Below are positions 6,041 to 59,033 of a stretch of DNA of 64,000 bases, in pieces. The notes beneath the pieces were generated by a model that ran no database searches, was not told where the DNA came from, and saw only the letters and a program-made list of their open reading frames with translations. The stretch comes from an uncultured Acidobacteriaceae bacterium. Lineage in GTDB: Bacteria > Acidobacteriota > Terriglobia > Terriglobales > Acidobacteriaceae. The stretch's first letter is position 1; every line of letters starts with the position of its first letter. Location of the stretch: assembly GCA_963815485.1 (NCBI GenBank), contig CAWFGQ010000001.1, positions 762,387 to 826,386 on the forward strand. The letters run 5' to 3'. A program made the translations under genes and the position numbers.

Positions 6041-9000
6041 TCAGAAGGAGAATCTGGCTCCGAATTCTCCGGTGAAGGAGCGTGGGACTACGGTGCTGGA
6101 GGGGTTGATGAAGCCGAGAGGCTTGAGGAAGCTGGTGGCGGCGTCGGAGACGTTGACGTCGTAGTTGGGGCCGTAGTTCGCGCGGTTGGTGATGTTGAAG
6201 GCCTGATAGAAGAGAGCCAGGCTGAAACGCTCGCCAAAGCCGATGGTCTTGCCGATACGGGCGTCGAACTGGAGGAATGGCGTGCTGACGGAGTAGTTGG
6301 AGTTGTAACCGACCTCGCGGCATGAACCTGCGGCGAGACAGTTGCGATAGTAGGTGGCGAGGGTGGTCTTACCGGTGGTGTCGGCGGCGACGGCTGCCTT
6401 GGCTGCGGCGAGATAGCTCACATAACCCTGAGTATTCTCCTGAGCTCCGGCGAGAATTGCGGCGTGGGGATTGCTGCGGCCGGAGCCTACTCCCCAGAGA
6501 TCGGCGGTGGATTCGACGATGCTGAGCGGACGGGCCGAGGCAGTGACGAGGATGGGCGAGATCTCAATACGCCATCGGAGAGCGAAGGTTCCGGCGGCGA
6601 CGAAGTGATGACGCTCGTCGTTAGGGGCGGTGCCGTGGTCGGGCTGACGGAACTCGCCGAGGAATTGATTGGTGGAGGCGTTGCGGAAGGCGGCGGGATT
6701 GCCCTCGAAGGCGAGAGCTTTGCCATAGGTGTAGTTCAGGATGGCGCTGAAGTGGTGAACCATGCTTTGCCGGTAGCTGATGTCGAGCGCATCGTAGTAG
6801 GAGCGGCCAATCGATTTTTCAACACCGAAGCGGCCGAGGACAGGAACACCGGCGGCTGCGAATGCAGCGGAGAAGGGCCGAATGCCTCCGTTGAAGTATT
6901 CGGTTGGATTGATGTTGACGGTCTTGTCTTCGTGGATGCCACGCGCCTGCACGTACTCGACCTCGATAACGCCATGGTTGGTGATGGCATACTGCATGCC
7001 AGCATTAATCTGCTGGGTATATGGATTGCGAAAGCCGGGATCCATCATGCGTCCGGTGGAGCCGGGAGCGAGATTGGGACCAGCGGGCGGGATGACCGGG
7101 AAAGGATCGATCAAGTAACGATAGTTGCTGAGCAGGATGTTGGTGCCGGGGACAACGTTGGAGGGAGCGCAGGCCTTGTCGGTGGGACCATTGCAGTTGA
7201 TGGTGTAGGTGTTCGCGAAGACCAGAGCGTTTGACTGCTGAATCATGAAGAGAGGAATGTTTTCGAAGGTCTGCCCGAAGTAGAGACCGTAGCCTCCGCG
7301 AATCACGAAGCGGCCGTTGCCGGAGACATCGAAGGAGAAGCCTACGCGCGGACTGAAGGCGAGATTGTCATTCTCCGGAAGCGTGGTGTAGTTGCCTCCG
7401 AGGAAGCCGAGGTTGGGCACATAGCCAACACCTGTTGGAGGCGTCTGCGTTGTCGGGACTGTCGGGACATTGGTTTTGGAGGCGGCGACAACCTCCTGGA
7501 AGGTGCGGCTGTTGGCCTGTTTTTTGAGTCCGTAGAGATCGAAGTCCTTATCGTAACGGAGACCCAGATTGAGGAGAAGGCGAGAGCTGGCGCGCCAGTC
7601 GTCTTCAAAGTAGATTCCGAGCATCTTGGGAGTGAGATTGAAGCTTGGATCGCCGGAGGTGCCGGTGGATCCCTGGATGGCACCGGCGGAAGAGAAGCCA
7701 AGGGGGTAGAGCGTTTTGTTGCCCAGGATGGTGGAGGCCGTGGCGAAGTAGTCGAACTCCGGAGTCGGATTGTTCTCGAAGAAGCCGCCGAGTTGTGGCT
7801 GGTAGAGGTAATCCACACCAGCGCGCAGAGTGTGTTTGCCGATCATGTGGGAGAAGTCGTCGCGGAACTGGAATTTGTGCTGGCTGGATTTCTGCGGAAC
7901 GTTGATGTTGGTGCCGAAGCTGACACCATCCGGGAAGGTGAAGTACGGCTTGCGAATTGTTGAGTCGATGAGATTGTTCCAGTACTGAAAGCCGCCGGTG
8001 AAGTTGTTGATGGTCCTTGGAGTAAAGACTGAGGTGAGGACGAGATTGGTGAGGATGAGGTCGTTGATGGTGAAGTTGCCCTCTGTTGCGTCGACCTGAG
8101 CGGTGGACTGGTCGTTGTTGCTCTTGTTGTCCTGCGCAGAGTAGGCGACGAAGATCTTTTCCTTGTCGTTGAAGACGTGATCGAGTCGGCCGTTGTAACG
8201 TTTTTCGTCAAACGGCGTGGGGATAGTGTGGATCGGCACAGCGCCCAGTGGAATGGCGAGGGTGAGTTCCTGGTAGGCGAGATCGGTGACGGCCAGTTGC
8301 GAGCGCTCGCGGAGGGCCTCGTAGGCGAAGAAGCCGAAGTCCTTGTCTTTGCGGATGTGTCCGCCGAAGGCACCGCCGTACTGCTGACGGCTGTAGTCGG
8401 GCTTGGGCTGGTTGGCCTGTTCGCTGATGGCGTTGTTGGTCTGGAGGGCCTGGCTGCGGAAGAAGCCGTAGAGCGCGCCGTGATACTTGTTGGTTCCGGA
8501 TTTGGTAACGATGTTGAGGGCTGCGCCTTCGCTGCGTCCGTTTTCTGCAGAGAAGCGATTGGTGCTGATCTTAAACTCTTCGACGGCTTCGAGGGGGAGT
8601 TGCTGAACTGCGCCGCCGACAGTGTTGTCCTTGTTGTCGATTCCGTTGACGGTGGTGTTGGTGTTGCGTCCGCTGGAACCGTTGACTGCGTAGACCGCAT
8701 AACGATTTTTAGTTGGGTCGTAGCTGTCGACGATCTTGACGCCGGGCGCGAGGATGGCGAGGTTCGCGATGTCACGGCCGTTCAAGGGAAGGTCGACGAT
8801 CTGTTGGGGAGTGACGGCGGCTGAGCTGTCGGTCTTTTCAGTATCGAGGAGCTGGTTGTTGGCTATGACTTCGATAGAGGAGTTGACGACTCCGGCGCGC
8901 ATGGGGAGATTTGCGGTGAAGGTGGTGCCGATGAGGAGCTGGATGTCCTTGATCTCGGCGGAACTGAAGCCAGCGGCTTCGGCTTTGACGTCATAAACGC

Positions 9001-42403: not shown

Positions 42404-42602
42404 GCACCCAGACTAATCGCTGTTGATTTTCTGCTGTGCGATTTTCGATGCGCCTCATGGAATTTAGCTGTTTTCGGGGCAAGGCGTAAATCTAAATTGC
42501 TGAAAATTATGGATTTACTAAATCGAAAGAAAATTTATTGACAATCATATCTCAATTGGATTATTGTGGTGGTGGGCACTCCTGCCCCGGAGATTCGAAA
42601 TT

Positions 42603-43067
42603 ATGCGTAAAGTACTTGTGGCCACCCTCGCCCTGACCCCGATGCTTCTTCACGCTCAGGTAAATTCGCCTGCCCAACCCCAGAGCACCCCGAATACCTT
42701 GCAGTCCAGGCTCGATTCGCCTGCAGACGTTTCTGCAGCGGATCCTGGCACAGCACACGTCGCTCCGGTTCGCATTTCCACCGGAGTAACGGCTCCGAAG
42801 CTGGTTTACACCGTGCCGGTAGAGACGGACTCCGACACGGCCCGCTCCGGCTTCAACTACGACAGAAAGACTGTTGTTGCAATGACGGTCGATGCAACTG
42901 GTAAGCCAGGTGAGTTGAAGATTGTCAAACCGATCAATCCTGTGATGGATAGGAATGTTCTCGCAGCGGTAAGGCAGTACCGGTTTGCTCCAGGCACACT
43001 GGACGGTAAGCCGGCAGCGGTTCCTGTGAATCTTGAGATCGTTCTCCGCAATTCGGCTCGGTATTAG
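42603..43067 (+). CDS. secreted TonB C-terminal-domain-like protein
   Basis: Signal peptide MRKVLVATLALTPMLLHAQ. The C-terminus VVAMTVDATGKPGELKIVKPINPVMDRNVLAAVRQYRFAPGTLDGKPAAVPVNLEI resembles the TonB_C fold. It has no transmembrane or Pro-rich TonB parts. Confidence 0.6.
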   Translation: MRKVLVATLALTPMLLHAQVNSPAQPQSTPNTLQSRLDSPADVSAADPGTAHVAPVRISTGVTAPKLVYTVPVETDSDTARSGFNYDRKTVVAMTVDATGKPGELKIVKPINPVMDRNVLAAVRQYRFAPGTLDGKPAAVPVNLEIVLRNSARY

Positions 43068-43500: not shown

Positions 43501-44298
43501 TTGAGGATTGGTCAGACTGCGTGTGTCGTTCTTGCTGTTTCGGTGGCCGGTGGTTTGGCGCAGAGTGCCGCTCCTCGTCCGAAGTTTGATGTGTTTGAGG
43601 TGGCAACGATCAAGCCGGTGGAGCCCGATGCCAAGGCTGGGCGATACATCGTGATGCAGGGCACGAATCGGTTTGTGGAGAAGGCTTACACGCTGAAACT
43701 GCTGATTGCGGCGGCTTACGATCTTAATCCGCGTGAGATTTCAGGCGGGCCGGGATGGATTGAGTCGGACCACTATGACATTGTTGCTGTGACACCTGGG
43801 GGAGTTCGTCCGACGCATGATGAGCAGATGTCGATGCTGCGCCATTTGCTTAGCGATCGATTTCAACTTGCGTTTCATCGCGAACAGAAAGTGTTCTCGA
43901 TCTATGAGCTGGAGATTGCGAAGGGTGGGCCGAAGCTGAAGGCGAGCGCGTCGCCTCCGGATGATCCGCCGGCACTGATCAGTACGGTTTATCCGCAGCG
44001 CATTGTGATGCCAGCGCGGAACGTGACGATGAACGATCTGACACGGTTGATGCAGCGAGCGATTCTTGATCGACCAGTTGTGGATAAGACTGGTCTTTCA
44101 GGACGATATGATTTCGATCTGGAGTGGGCTCCGGATGAGACGCAGTTTGGCGGCGAGGTTCCGGTAGCATCGGCAGATGCGCCGAGTCCGCCGCTGTTTA
44201 CGGCGATGCAGGAACAGCTTGGGTTGCGACTGGTGGCGACGAGAGGGCCGGTGGATGCGCTTGTGGTGGATAGGGCCGAACGGCCTTCGGCGAACTGA
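43501..44298 (+). CDS. TIGR03435-like (DUF3738) secreted protein, copy 1
   Basis: 265 aa with a signal peptide and family blocks FEVATIKP, GPGWIESDHYDIVA, VVDKTGLSGRYDFDLEW and LGLRLVATRGPVDALVVD. Confidence 0.8.
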   Translation: MRIGQTACVVLAVSVAGGLAQSAAPRPKFDVFEVATIKPVEPDAKAGRYIVMQGTNRFVEKAYTLKLLIAAAYDLNPREISGGPGWIESDHYDIVAVTPGGVRPTHDEQMSMLRHLLSDRFQLAFHREQKVFSIYELEIAKGGPKLKASASPPDDPPALISTVYPQRIVMPARNVTMNDLTRLMQRAILDRPVVDKTGLSGRYDFDLEWAPDETQFGGEVPVASADAPSPPLFTAMQEQLGLRLVATRGPVDALVVDRAERPSAN

Positions 44299-46881: not shown

Positions 46882-46935
46882 AAACGGTTCGCGCTGAGCG
46901 CGAATGCCACCTTAGGCGCAAAAGACGCGCCGAAG

Positions 46936-47032
46936 ATGGGGCACCCAGATTATTTTCGATGGGTTAGATGTGAGCCACCCGTCCATGAATGGGGCACCCG
47001 ATGTGTCGCTAGTTTCTATGCATGGGCCACCG
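46936..47032. repeat. four dispersed copies of a 10-11-nt GC-rich motif in the intergenic DNA
   Basis: The copies are ATGGGGCACCC (46936-46946), TGAGCCACCC (46971-46980), ATGGGGCACCC (46989-46999) and ATGGGCCACCG (47022-47032). Two short hairpins precede them: TTCGCGC..GCGCGAA and GGCGC..GCGCC. Confidence 0.6.
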
Positions 47033-47138
47033 CCGAAGGAAGCTCCAAATTTAAAAACAAAAAATTGTTGTTGACGCAGTAATGTGGATGCCTCACATTC
47101 GTTGAAAATCCCGACTGTAAGTTGGAACGAGTCTTCCC

Positions 47139-47723
47139 ATGCAGAGCATTACTCTTTCCCCCTCGACCGCTTTAACCGGACTTGTCCTCATCTTAGCGCT
47201 GGCCATCTCAGATGGCATGCTTGTCCACGCATTCCGGGAGCAAAGAGCAGTACTGGATTCCTTCGCAAATCGCCAAGCGCAGACCTTACCTGCAGTTGGT
47301 GAGGGGTTGCCCACGCTGTCAGGCCGCAAGTTGACGACTGGTGAGGACTTCAGTGTAGTTCCGGCTTCCACAGAGCTCATGACACTCCTGGTGTTCCGGG
47401 AGTCATGCCAGTACTGTGAACAAAACTGGAAGAACTGGGAAACGCTCTATAACACGCCCTCCAATAAGATGCCCATCGTCTTCATCAGCGGCGATAGTGC
47501 GGTCAGTGCATCCTACCGACAGAAACATCCCTTGTTGGATGGACATATCGCTTTGGTTGGAATAAAGCCGGAAATCTTGGCGTCGTTGAAACTGGGAGCG
47601 ACACCCCAGACCGTCCTCGTGGTCGATGGGAAGGTAAAGCGAGGTTGGCCTGGCGTTCTCACTGACGACGACATTAAGGAAGTAAAGCAAGCGGCCTCGG
47701 ATGAGCTAGCTCGCCACGACTGA
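47139..47723 (+). CDS. membrane-anchored TlpA/ResA-like thioredoxin-fold thiol-disulfide oxidoreductase
   Basis: 194 aa with an N-terminal transmembrane anchor (ALTGLVLILALAISDGMLV). The CxxC lies in LLVFRESCQYCEQNW, and a cis-Pro-type block is LGATPQTVLVVDGKV. Confidence 0.7.
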   Translation: MQSITLSPSTALTGLVLILALAISDGMLVHAFREQRAVLDSFANRQAQTLPAVGEGLPTLSGRKLTTGEDFSVVPASTELMTLLVFRESCQYCEQNWKNWETLYNTPSNKMPIVFISGDSAVSASYRQKHPLLDGHIALVGIKPEILASLKLGATPQTVLVVDGKVKRGWPGVLTDDDIKEVKQAASDELARHD

Positions 47724-47774
47724 GCATTTTGTTGAAGTCAGCGCAACAATAACTGTTCTACGGAGGAAACCATA

Positions 47775-47978
47775 ATGCAAAAACTTTTCACGACGATATT
47801 GCGTACAAGTCTTGCGGCTGCGGCAATCACGCTTGCTGTGGGTCTCATGACCCTTCCTAAGACCTTTGTTCGTCCAGTTCATGCTCAAAGATCTTGTACC
47901 TGTTGCGCGGACGCGCCGTGTGGTCTGTGCAGCTATGATTGCGGCGTTTGCACGGGCGGCGGTACATGTTCACACTGA
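47775..47978 (+). CDS. secreted cysteine-rich peptide precursor (67 aa; predicted 30-aa mature peptide with 8 Cys)
   Basis: A strong RBS (GGAGGA) lies 7 nt upstream of the ATG. The leader is Sec-type (MQKLFTTILRTSLAAAAITLAVGLMTLPKTFVRPVHA). The core is QRSCTCCADAPCGLCSYDCGVCTGGGTCSH. An intrinsic terminator follows directly. It lies 51 nt downstream of the TlpA-like gene. Confidence 0.6.
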   Translation: MQKLFTTILRTSLAAAAITLAVGLMTLPKTFVRPVHAQRSCTCCADAPCGLCSYDCGVCTGGGTCSH

Positions 47979-47990
47979 TGCGAGAGCCTC

Positions 47991-48026
47991 TCCGACCCCA
48001 TCCATTAGGGGGTCGGACCTTTTCTC
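47991..48026 (+). terminator. intrinsic terminator of the TlpA-like / Cys-peptide unit
   Basis: Stem TCCGACCCC / GGGGTCGGA (47991-47999 and 48009-48017), followed by CCTTTTCTC. Confidence 0.75.
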
Positions 48027-48116
48027 GGTGACCCGGACTTTTGTTACCTTGGGGCCTTGTTATCGTGCCAATTCCCCACACAATCGTTTTGCTGCTTGCC
48101 CAATGATTGAGGCATT

Positions 48117-48980
48117 GTGCCTATGGTGTTCCGTCGACAGCTAAGCATTCTCTTTGTCCTCGTGATTCTCTTCTTCACGGGGCGGTTGAGCGGCATGGTA
48201 CGTCTTCCACCGGCTCATACCGTTCTTTCGATTCAGGAGCCGAGGTCGGTCACGGCAAGCCGATCGGTATCGGACCTTCCGAGCTTTGAGGTCGTATCCG
48301 TAAAACCTAATCTTGACCCGAATGCCCCTTTCTATGTCCGATTCACGCCGGATGGCTTTTCTACCCGGAATTGCACAATCAAAACCCTAATCAAACTCAC
48401 TTTTTATTTGAAAGACGATCGTCTGGTCGTAAACCTTCCTCACGACAAGGAAGCTTTCTATGATGTCGAGGCCAAAGTCGCCGAAGGTGACATGGCAAGG
48501 TTCAAGCGACTCTCTGACCTGCAGAAACATTTCATGCTGCAGAGTCTTCTCACGGAGCGATTTCAGCTCAAGTCCCACTTCACTTCGAAAGAACTTCCTG
48601 TGTATGCCCTCGTGATCGACAAGAGTGGCGTAAAGCTTACCAATGCCAAGCCGAATGCAGACGGAGAGATCGAGAAAGCGATGAAGTTGACGGGCAGGTA
48701 TACCGTCGCCGTTACCGGATGGGCGACAGAAGACTTCTTTGCTCTGCTTACTCAGATGTCAGGCAGATATGTGGTTGATCGAACTGGGTTGACTGGGCGC
48801 TATGATTTTACTCTTAGCTTCGGTCCAGATCCGAGTGTAGACCCAAGGGAAGACGTTCCGTTCGATGGTCCTGTCATATTTACGGCCCTGCGAGAGCAAC
48901 TGGGTCTTGCGCTTGTGCCATCCACCGCCATACTCGACGCGATCGTGATCGAACACGTCGAAGTCCCAACACCGAATTAG
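48117..48980 (+). CDS. TIGR03435-like (DUF3738) secreted protein, copy 2
   Basis: 287 aa with an N-terminal hydrophobic anchor or signal. Family blocks are FEVVSVKPN, YDVEAKV, VVDRTGLTGRYDFTLSF and LGLALVPSTAILDAIVIE. It is clearly paralogous to 43501-44298. Confidence 0.8.
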   Translation: MPMVFRRQLSILFVLVILFFTGRLSGMVRLPPAHTVLSIQEPRSVTASRSVSDLPSFEVVSVKPNLDPNAPFYVRFTPDGFSTRNCTIKTLIKLTFYLKDDRLVVNLPHDKEAFYDVEAKVAEGDMARFKRLSDLQKHFMLQSLLTERFQLKSHFTSKELPVYALVIDKSGVKLTNAKPNADGEIEKAMKLTGRYTVAVTGWATEDFFALLTQMSGRYVVDRTGLTGRYDFTLSFGPDPSVDPREDVPFDGPVIFTALREQLGLALVPSTAILDAIVIEHVEVPTPN

Positions 48981-58655: not shown

Positions 58656-59033
58656 CTACTTGATTTCGACAGTGGCGACGCCTTCGAACTTCTTGGCGAT
58701 CGCAGCCGCATCGTCCTTCGAAATGTTCTCCTTCAAGGGCTTCGGAGCACCGTCGACCAGGTCCTTGGCTTCCTTGAGGCCAAGAGCGGTGACTTCGCGT
58801 ACAGCCTTGATGGTGTTGATCTTATTCGCGCCGGCATCCTTGAGGATGACGGTGAACTCGGTCTTTTCCTCAGCCGGGGCTGCTGCTGCCGCGCCGCCGC
58901 CTGCTGCCGGGGCGGCTGCGACTGCTGCCGCTGCCGAGACGCCAAGACGCTCTTCGAGCTTCTTGACCAGAGCCGAGGCCTCAAGGAGGCTCAGGCTAAC
59001 GATTGATTCTTCCAACTGCTGGATGTCTGCCAT
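58656..59033 (-). CDS. rplL: 50S ribosomal protein L7/L12
   Basis: 125 aa: an N-terminal dimerisation helix, an Ala/Gly/Pro hinge and the C-terminal domain [34 protein letters not shown]. Confidence 0.97.

Follow-up and report, generated by a model that had tools for sequence, protein, structure and literature searches.

Does a short, strikingly cysteine-rich open reading frame (ORF) beside a gene for a membrane-anchored thioredoxin-fold protein encode a real peptide, and what might a bacterium make with such a pair of genes? The question is raised by a locus in a stretch of 64,000 nucleotides from an uncultured Acidobacteriaceae bacterium (assembly GCA_963815485.1, contig CAWFGQ010000001.1, positions 762,387 to 826,386 of the forward strand), referred to below as the window. 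The original prediction, made from this sequence alone, described a two-gene unit: a 194-residue membrane-anchored ORF with a CxxC motif and, 51 nt past its end, a 67-codon ORF (47775-47978) with a strong ribosome binding site (RBS), a Sec leader ending in VHA before a Gln, and 8 cysteines in 30 residues. All of these features are present in the sequence (Table 1). Our comparison with related loci indicates that the small ORF is a genuine gene under purifying selection, that it represents a new peptide family, and that the conserved unit comprises three genes rather than two, the third encoding a protein of the DUF3738/TIGR03435 family. We give about an even chance to the reading that the product of the small gene is exported by the Sec pathway and becomes a disulfide-knotted peptide with the help of a dedicated thiol-disulfide oxidoreductase, the DUF3738 protein being an exported or periplasmic partner.

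Cysteine density alone does not prove that the ORF is a gene. It ranks second in this respect among the 839 reading frames of the window, and the frame that ranks first (58656-59003, + strand, with 9 cysteines in 30 residues) is no more than an off-frame artefact opposite the alanine-rich rplL gene (58656-59033, - strand). A small ORF of the same design lies beside a thioredoxin-like gene in 10 other, independent loci, all from metagenomes, the related sequences being from soil. The thioredoxin-like protein itself is rare, with just six relatives among 5.8 billion protein clusters and one further relative, L009, from the JGI metagenomes. The small ORF is found 3' of this gene in the related loci L001, L002/L003, L004, L008 and L010, and contigs L005-L007 stop right where such an ORF, or its RBS, starts. 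More distant peptides are preceded by the same CxxC protein (with CPYC in L019, CHFC in L020 and CGYC in L021) or, in L016, by a C-terminal fragment of it. A six-frame scan with a hidden Markov model (HMM) detected exactly one copy of the peptide per locus, and none in L009. In all related loci GGAGG or GGAGA lies 5-9 nt 5' of the ATG; the spacing from GGAGGA to the ATG at 47775 in the window is 7 nt. The thioredoxin-like gene, by contrast, has no obvious Shine-Dalgarno sequence, which suggests that the peptide is translated much more than the thioredoxin-like protein.

The ratio of nonsynonymous to synonymous substitution rates (dN/dS, by the Nei-Gojobori method) is 0.18 for the whole peptide ORF and 0.14 for the part encoding the predicted mature core when the window is compared with L001, and 0.14 and 0.08, respectively, when L002 is compared with L010. 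Values across the core comparisons range between 0.08 and 0.28, and the core is under tighter purifying selection than the signal region or hydrophobic segment. Across loci whose synonymous sites are saturated, the RBS, reading frame and cysteine columns of the ORF are kept, as is the ORF itself, and both TGT and TGC codons occur in the conserved cysteine columns. The original prediction had proposed as its own test that the cysteine positions should hold while their codons drift synonymously, and that the small ORF should co-occur with the oxidoreductase gene; both expectations were borne out, the peptide always being paired with a CxxC protein. Recurrence with the same neighbour, low dN/dS and TGT/TGC drift place the ORF beyond chance. 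A chance ORF or a decaying pseudogene without function, which might be argued from the frequent failure of gene callers to report the ORF and from the still higher cysteine density of another frame in the window, is effectively excluded by the conserved ORF, RBS, frame and cysteine columns and by dN/dS values of 0.1-0.3, and we regard it as barely conceivable. The JGI annotations of L001 (5607-5813) and L002 (1758-1991) leave the peptide ORF uncalled, and the exact sequence of the window peptide is on record solely from Logan and ENA calls; its thioredoxin-like neighbour is on record from NCBI and JGI as well. The skipped gene is one example of the kind of small gene that present-day genome mining overlooks.

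The precursor of the window peptide consists of MQKLFTTILRTSLAAAAITLAVGLMTLPKTFVRPVHA up to the predicted cut and QRSCTCCADAPCGLCSYDCGVCTGGGTCSH after it. When 1.84 billion representative proteins were searched with a profile (cut-off E<=1e-3), 11 matched, and these form a close group and eight distant members of 71-88 residues; alignment and inspection covered 14 members of the family. By rule-based inspection all 14 carry the features of a Sec signal for signal peptidase I, the cleavage itself being a prediction. Their n-regions are positively charged (1-3 Lys plus Arg; K3 and R10 in the window, the latter nearly invariant throughout) and precede a hydrophobic core of 15 residues with a Kyte-Doolittle score of 1.9-2.9, the h-region of the window peptide extending over 15-17 residues. 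Position -1 is Ala and position -3 small or aliphatic (V/A/I/L) in every member; 13 of the 14 have V/A-x-A, with V-H-A in the window, and in 11 of the 14 residue 37 is the last before the predicted cut. A motif L/V-P-K-x-F, which reads L-P-K-T-F in the window peptide, is conserved in the family between this hydrophobic core and the cysteine cluster, with its Lys absent from the L002/L008/L010 subclade. Gln is the first residue past the predicted cut in the six closest peptides, that of the window included, and in L004 the peptide gene has a glutaminyl cyclase gene (PF05096, E 3e-88; 6388-7272) 530 nt downstream; an N-terminal pyroglutamate on the peptides of the window clade is therefore plausible. 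No glutaminyl cyclase gene adjoins the cassette in the other loci.

The predicted mature cores have 30-51 residues, are acidic (pI 4.0-5.8 in 12 of 13; 5.2 in the window) and are rich in Gly, Pro, Ser and Thr, with 0-2 His each and almost no Met. Their common scaffold is six cysteines spaced C-x2-4-C-x5-9-C-x3-8-C-x1-2-C-x8-10-C, to which C43 and C49 have been added jointly in the window clade, giving eight. The number of cysteines is even (6 or 8) in 13 of the 14 cores. Pro and Gly are conserved near the cysteines, and an aromatic residue lies within the cluster, in C-[ST]-[YF]-x-C. The six-cysteine spacing is compatible with the ranges published for knottins and with cystine-knot frameworks. 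Binding of haem or of an Fe-S cluster was ruled out, as there is neither a CxxCH nor a CxxCxxCxxxCP motif. None of the 14 members matches any Pfam family at E<=1, and NCBIfam gave just stray matches to single members (E>=0.03); the models for cysteine-rich toxins, class II and other bacteriocins, defensin-like peptides and heat-stable enterotoxins in these two collections were not matched. A profile search of the PDB returned only a helix of a G protein-coupled receptor aligned to the signal peptide (E>0.5). As the original prediction supposed, the peptide belongs to no bacteriocin, toxin or metallothionein family described in Pfam, NCBIfam or the PDB, and the family appears to be new.

Among 12 homologues of the thioredoxin-like protein, C90, C93, E94, N96, W97, K98, W100, H130 and T155-P156 are invariant, and the CQYC of the window is replaced by CNYC, CHFC, CVYC, CHYC, CGYC, CPFC or CPYC. 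The residue before the motif is Ser, Ala or Gly; in proteins of the TlpA/ResA/CcmG type it is usually Trp. Pfam matches to the 12 homologues all lie below threshold (Redoxin in one, with E 0.19, Thioredoxin_3 in five and Thioredoxin_2 in three, TraF likewise appearing only below threshold), and NCBIfam has no match for the 194-residue protein. Its best sequence match in the PDB is FetE of C. jejuni (E 0.033). The AlphaFold2 (AF2) model has the beta-alpha-beta-alpha-beta-beta-alpha order of the thioredoxin type, and a Foldseek search with it retrieves CcmG, FetE, ResA, DsbE and TlpA with E values of 2.5e-5 to 1e-3. The top match is CcmG (1kng, E 2.5e-5, TM(target) 0.55), FetE (8t4c) is also among the best, and the TlpA matches include its complexes with ScoI and CoxB (4txo and 4txv). 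With the CxxC motif and the cis-Pro loop (T155-P156) invariant and the topology of the model fitting, at a predicted local distance difference test score (pLDDT) of 50, we accept a probable TlpA/CcmG-like thioredoxin fold. Membership in Redoxin (PF08534), AhpC-TSA (PF00578) and Thioredoxin_8 was rejected, none of them scoring above its curated cut-off. The label "TlpA/ResA-like" of the original prediction thus stands at the level of the fold, on a low-confidence model, and falls at the level of sequence; the thioredoxin-fold family to which the enzyme belongs has no curated model.

A single hydrophobic helix occupies residues 10-29 in all homologues. Within it Asp25 (47211-47213) is invariant (12/12), often following Ser or Cys, and the first nine residues of the protein are conserved as M-x-x-[IV]-[ST]-L-x-x-x. 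A salt bridge between Asp25 and Lys29 of the peptide's PKxF motif was considered and dropped, since L002, L008 and L010 lack the Lys yet keep the Asp. No gene for CcdA, DsbD, DsbB, VKOR or MauE is conserved beside the cassette across loci. In L021 a gene for an AhpC-TSA/Redoxin protein with CPYC (1797-2498) lies directly upstream of the thioredoxin-like gene, so that two thiol-redox genes precede the peptide there.

The third gene scores well above the cut-offs of both family models, with 153 bits for PF12543 (cut-off 22) and 166.5 bits for TIGR03435 (cut-off 40). A DUF3738 gene adjoins the pair in 8 of the 9 loci in which this can be tested. It lies downstream in the window, L001, L002, L010, L016 and L017-19, and upstream of the pair or of the thioredoxin-like gene in L004 and L009. 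L021 alone has no adjoining DUF3738 gene, its peptide gene being followed by an IS3 transposase. The least similar of the thioredoxin-like homologues (39% identity, CPFC) is that of L009 (458-1950), where a DUF3738 gene ends 18 nt upstream of the thioredoxin-like gene. The DUF3738 proteins linked to the cassette are 38-43% identical to each other, against 33-36% to two unlinked paralogues, which weakly supports co-inheritance of this gene with the cassette.

This linkage overturns the view of the locus as a self-contained operon of two genes. A strong hairpin does follow the peptide gene: it has a 9-bp G+C-rich stem (inner stem 47991-48017) starting 13 nt past the stop codon and followed by CCTTTTCTC, and a scan for consensus terminators missed it because its loop has 9 nt. 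Strong hairpins with differing stem sequences occur in the same place in L001, L002, L008 and L010, and none is present in L004, L019 or L021; the gap between the peptide and DUF3738 genes of L019 is just 49 nt. The U-tract after the hairpin is weak in the window and in L001 and absent in L002 and L010. The hairpin is probably a terminator, an attenuator or a 3'-end stabiliser, and the unit is better seen as a cassette of three genes in which one clade has an internal hairpin. A weak terminator-like hairpin with a 5-bp stem (47709-47725), followed by ATTTTGTTGA, lies across the thioredoxin-like gene's stop codon.

DUF3738/TIGR03435 is a large family with many copies in Acidobacteria. We know of no role for it, and a full-text literature search for either name returned no paper; the cassette is the first gene-neighbourhood clue to the function of any member. 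Searches of PDB sequences, one with a profile of nine sequences included, gave no match. An AF2 model built from two sequences reached a pLDDT of 41, and its Foldseek matches (E>0.2) are meaningless; nothing was drawn from them. Nine DUF3738 proteins share a P-x-x-N motif at the C-terminus (48960-48977 in the window), in the forms PTPN, PSAN, PTLN, PVPN and PGDN. The Asn is the exact end of the protein in eight of the nine, the second L010 copy being one residue longer. D116, R148, H154, Y229, D230 and Q261 are invariant polar residues. Together with the C-terminal motif, these residues might belong to an active site or to a signal for processing or sorting. In L010 (1046-3310) three DUF3738 paralogues are adjacent; the peptide-linked one and the other two lie on opposite strands. 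The window has a second DUF3738/TIGR03435 gene 3.6 kb upstream (43501-44298), which is 33-34% identical to the cassette copy, has no cysteine-rich ORF beside it and is preceded by a gene for a TonB_C-domain protein (42564-43067).

The reading that we favour can be set out as follows. The 67-residue precursor would be targeted to the Sec pathway and cut by signal peptidase I after V-H-A, releasing an acidic, Gly/Pro-rich core of 30 residues, the new N-terminal Gln of which may cyclise to pyroglutamate in the window clade. The eight cysteines of the core (six in the wider family) would form four (or three) intramolecular disulfides, and the membrane-tethered CxxC enzyme encoded upstream would form or shuffle them beside the translocon. 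The exported DUF3738/TIGR03435 protein would be a third obligatory partner that may bind or carry the folded peptide, serve as its receptor or provide immunity to it. The peptide itself might act as a toxin, a signal or an inhibitor. Disulfides are preferred to free thiols because the cysteines are even in number, a pair of them was gained jointly, Pro and Gly could provide turns, an aromatic residue lies in the cluster, and His and Met are scarce; the parity of the cysteines and the co-gained pair in particular appear to favour disulfides over metal binding. Oxidative folding by enzymes of this fold has precedents. Mt-DsbE and Mt-DsbF oxidatively fold hirudin, which has three disulfides (PMC3853704), FetE appears oxidase-like (PMC10783030), and MauD is a dedicated CxxC protein for methylamine dehydrogenase's small subunit, with its six disulfides (bioRxiv 10.64898/2026.03.05.709764).

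Several observations weigh against this reading. The L008 core has seven cysteines, through a single TGC-to-CGC change, and the acidic cores are unlike typical antimicrobial peptides. L009 has no peptide ORF within 930 nt downstream of its thioredoxin-like gene, the sole exception to the pairing. The only Pfam match of the window enzyme is Thioredoxin_3 at 17.5 bits, below the cut-off of 24.8, and its AF2 model is of low confidence (pLDDT 50.4). The thioredoxin domain is assumed to be periplasmic, and the charge bias gives no clear placement: by the positive-inside heuristic the flanks of the helix carry 0-2 Lys plus Arg on the N-side and 0-4 on the C-side in the homologues. Most characterised membrane-anchored TlpA, CcmG and ResA proteins are reductants, and the cassette encodes no DsbB-, VKOR- or MauE-type protein that could re-oxidise the enzyme. 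If the favoured reading is nevertheless correct, the cassette provides a Gram-negative soil bacterium with a new, compact route to a highly cross-linked 3-kDa peptide that needs no more than Sec export, a disulfide enzyme of its own and a single helper. Peptides with this degree of cross-linking are of interest both as stable scaffolds and for possible roles as toxins, signals or inhibitors.

A more specific version, which we consider doubtful, is that the trio is a self-contained peptide-receptor or toxin-immunity system of Acidobacteria, in which a cystine-knot peptide, produced with an oxidoreductase of its own, would be recognised by the neighbouring DUF3738 protein. If so, it would supply the first ligand and function for a TIGR03435 subgroup and a new class of Sec-dependent bacterial knotted peptides.

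The general design, a dedicated oxidoreductase with a cysteine-rich exported peptide, is known; DUF3738 as a third partner is unprecedented, and by sequence the cassette is not a member of any system with which it was compared. In the MauD/MauA system and the candidate Streptomyces mauD/mauE families, a cluster-encoded CxxC thioredoxin-fold protein likewise serves one cysteine-dense exported polypeptide. Here, however, the protein matches no NCBIfam or Pfam model, NCBIfam having one for MauD, and there are no mau genes and no MauE-type membrane partner. In addition, the substrate would be a 30-residue peptide, whereas that of MauD is an enzyme subunit with a tryptophan tryptophylquinone cofactor, and the third partner is a DUF3738 protein. 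The heat-stable enterotoxin STa of E. coli is made as a Sec-dependent precursor of ~70 residues with a short C-terminal core of six cysteines and three disulfides, oxidised in the periplasm before release; it uses the general enzyme DsbA and has a long pro-region, and no dedicated oxidoreductase or DUF3738 partner is known to accompany it. The likeness to STa is one of precursor architecture, without sequence similarity (0/14 peptide members with a Pfam match). The enzyme shares with TlpA (of the TlpA/ScoI/CoxB group), CcmG, ResA, Mt-DsbE/DsbF and FetE an N-terminally anchored single-domain thioredoxin fold, a CxxC motif and a cis-Pro loop. It differs from TlpA, CcmG and ResA in its active-site dipeptide, x-[Y/F], and the neighbouring peptide, unlike the clients of their pathways, lacks a CxxCH haem motif and a Sco- or Cox-type site. 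Clusters for bacteriocins (the glycocins enterocin F4-9, pallidocin and sublancin, and pediocin with PedC) likewise place a cysteine-containing peptide beside its own disulfide enzyme, which in glycocins and pediocin is needed for correct disulfides (PMC8620827, PMC6405829, PMC4919988). Those bacteriocins are Gram-positive and have double-glycine leaders, ABC exporters, S/O-glycosyltransferases in the case of the glycocins, and usually cationic peptides; the cassette instead combines an acidic core with a Sec signal, lacks an exporter, and encodes a TlpA-fold enzyme whose sequence does not match their accessory proteins.

The fold of the enzyme also allows the opposite redox direction. CcmG, ResA and TlpA, which are reductants, are among its closest relatives by fold, TlpA in the ScoI and CoxB complexes. 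The peptide could, as an extracytoplasmic thiolate ligand, bind soft metals (Cu(I), Zn, Cd, Hg or As) in the periplasm, acting as a buffer or chaperone in the manner of a metallothionein; the TlpA-like protein would keep it reduced, as TlpA does for ScoI and CoxB, with the DUF3738 protein taking part in metal hand-over or sensing. We consider this unlikely, though it is the main rival: the core is acidic and Gly/Ser-rich with CxxC, CxC and CC motifs, and low G+C, patchy spread and mobile neighbours in other loci are often seen in resistance cassettes. Against this, the even cysteine count and the paired gain suit disulfides better, His and Met are nearly absent from the cores, and the conserved C-[ST]-[YF]-x-C places an aromatic residue inside the cysteine cluster, which is untypical of metallothioneins. 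Moreover, no metal transporter, metal-sensing regulator or metal riboswitch occupies a conserved position in any locus, and the peptide does not match the models for bacterial metallothioneins. Metallothioneins of the SmtA/BmtA type are likewise small, cysteine-dense and Gly/Ser-rich, but they are cytoplasmic, have no signal peptide and use His as well as Cys; the family described here has an export signal, no Pfam match, 0-2 His and the aromatic residue in its cluster.

It is improbable that the hydrophobic segment remains uncleaved, so that the product would be a small membrane protein whose cysteine-rich tail would, as a tethered redox partner, interact with or sense the thioredoxin-like protein and perhaps also DUF3738. 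The L/V-P-K-x-F motif and the fixed length of 37 residues are unusually conserved for a signal peptide, and the invariant Asp in the anchor of the enzyme could pair with a charged residue in a partner helix. However, the V/A-x-A of 13 of the 14 members lies exactly at the expected signal peptidase I site, L002, L008 and L010 retain Asp25 without the Lys of PKxF, and the core is under stronger selection than the hydrophobic segment.

Candidate families of RiPPs, peptides made by the ribosome and modified after translation, in Streptomyces pair mauD/mauE homologues with precursors of 8 or more cysteines (PMC7794033). By analogy, the cysteines here could be modified (to thioether, sactionine, S-glycosyl or other forms) by enzymes encoded elsewhere, with the thioredoxin-like protein as an accessory. 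The leader region is conserved and glycosyltransferase genes flank two loci (GT14 in the window, GT4 in L016), but we hold this reading to be very improbable. A Sec signal would carry the precursor away from cytoplasmic modifying enzymes, and no radical-SAM, LanB/C/M, YcaO or glycocin-type glycosyltransferase gene, nor one for a leader peptidase/ABC exporter, is conserved beside the cassette. The original prediction had recognised no RiPP-modifying enzyme nearby, and this remains true, the flanking genes varying among loci. A glycocin-like reading that drew on the upstream GT14 gene was rejected, as GT14 is not conserved in other loci.

Table 1. Features of the cassette in the window, and the genes that flank it in the window and in related loci
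Feature	Position	Strand	Basis
Presumed promoter region / intergenic region upstream of the cassette	46882..47138	+	position
Gene for thioredoxin-fold protein, 194 aa, membrane-anchored, C-x-[Y/F]-C motif	47139..47723	+	ORF, homologues, AF2, Foldseek
Single transmembrane helix, residues 11-29 of the thioredoxin-like protein, with invariant Asp25	47169..47225	+	hydropathy scan, alignment
CQYC redox motif, residues 90-93	47406..47417	+	sequence, alignment
Shine-Dalgarno sequence GGAGGA of the peptide gene	47762..47767	+	sequence; kept in related loci
Sec-type signal peptide, residues 1-37 of the 67-aa ORF	47775..47885	+	rule-based inspection, alignment
Predicted mature 30-aa core QRSCTCCADAPCGLCSYDCGVCTGGGTCSH plus stop codon	47886..47978	+	ORF, alignment
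G+C-rich hairpin with weak U-tract, 3' of the peptide stop	47981..48027	+	fold -25.2 kcal/mol
DUF3738/TIGR03435 gene, 287 aa, signal-peptide-bearing	48117..48980	+	Pfam 1.1e-44, NCBIfam 7.9e-49
Outer flank, window: GT14 and rpoC			
Outer flank, L001: dnaX/recR and SET-domain gene			
Outer flank, L002: ParE/Phd pair and ffh-like gene			judged by eye
Outer flank, L004: DUF4096, glutaminyl cyclase and Tn7 TnsA			
Outer flank, L016: GT4 glycosyltransferase			
Outer flank, L021: AhpC-TSA and IS3			

Conservation around the peptide gene is limited to the thioredoxin-like and DUF3738 genes, and beyond these the neighbours are unrelated between loci. In the window, rpoC converges on the cassette from the opposite strand. 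Ribosomal protein L1 encoded in the window shares a 90%-identity cluster with Tunturiibacter empetritectus and Edaphobacter aggregans, which places the host in the Acidobacteriaceae (Terriglobales). A motif scan for the thioredoxin-like protein in 185,579 GTDB species representatives found no relative, and searching the GTDB representatives with a degenerate DNA pattern for PCGLC...CGVCT yielded just 3 matches, all out of frame and due to chance. The cassette was not found in viral contigs or PLSDB plasmids, and the scan of JGI metagenomes added L009 only. The G+C content of the cassette (47139-48980) is 52.4%, compared with 57.8% for the window, and is the fourth lowest of 311 sliding windows. 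Given its absence from GTDB representatives, viral contigs and plasmids and its low G+C, the cassette looks like a rare, accessory, patchily distributed element. The low G+C, together with the mobile or addiction genes beside the cassette in other loci (ParE/Phd in L002, DUF4096 and Tn7 TnsA in L004, IS3 in L021), suggests that it is horizontally mobile.

No sigma-70 consensus promoter was found upstream of the cassette, no Rfam family was matched, and no operator or motif shared upstream across loci was visible by eye. In the upstream intergenic region of the window ATGGGGCACCC, 11 nt long, occurs as a direct repeat (46936 and 46989), and a third, degenerate copy is found at 47022; within the 64 kb the copies are confined to this region. 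An imperfect inverted repeat of 13 nt is also present, at 46968-46980 and 47086-47098, and these repeats may constitute the site of a regulator.

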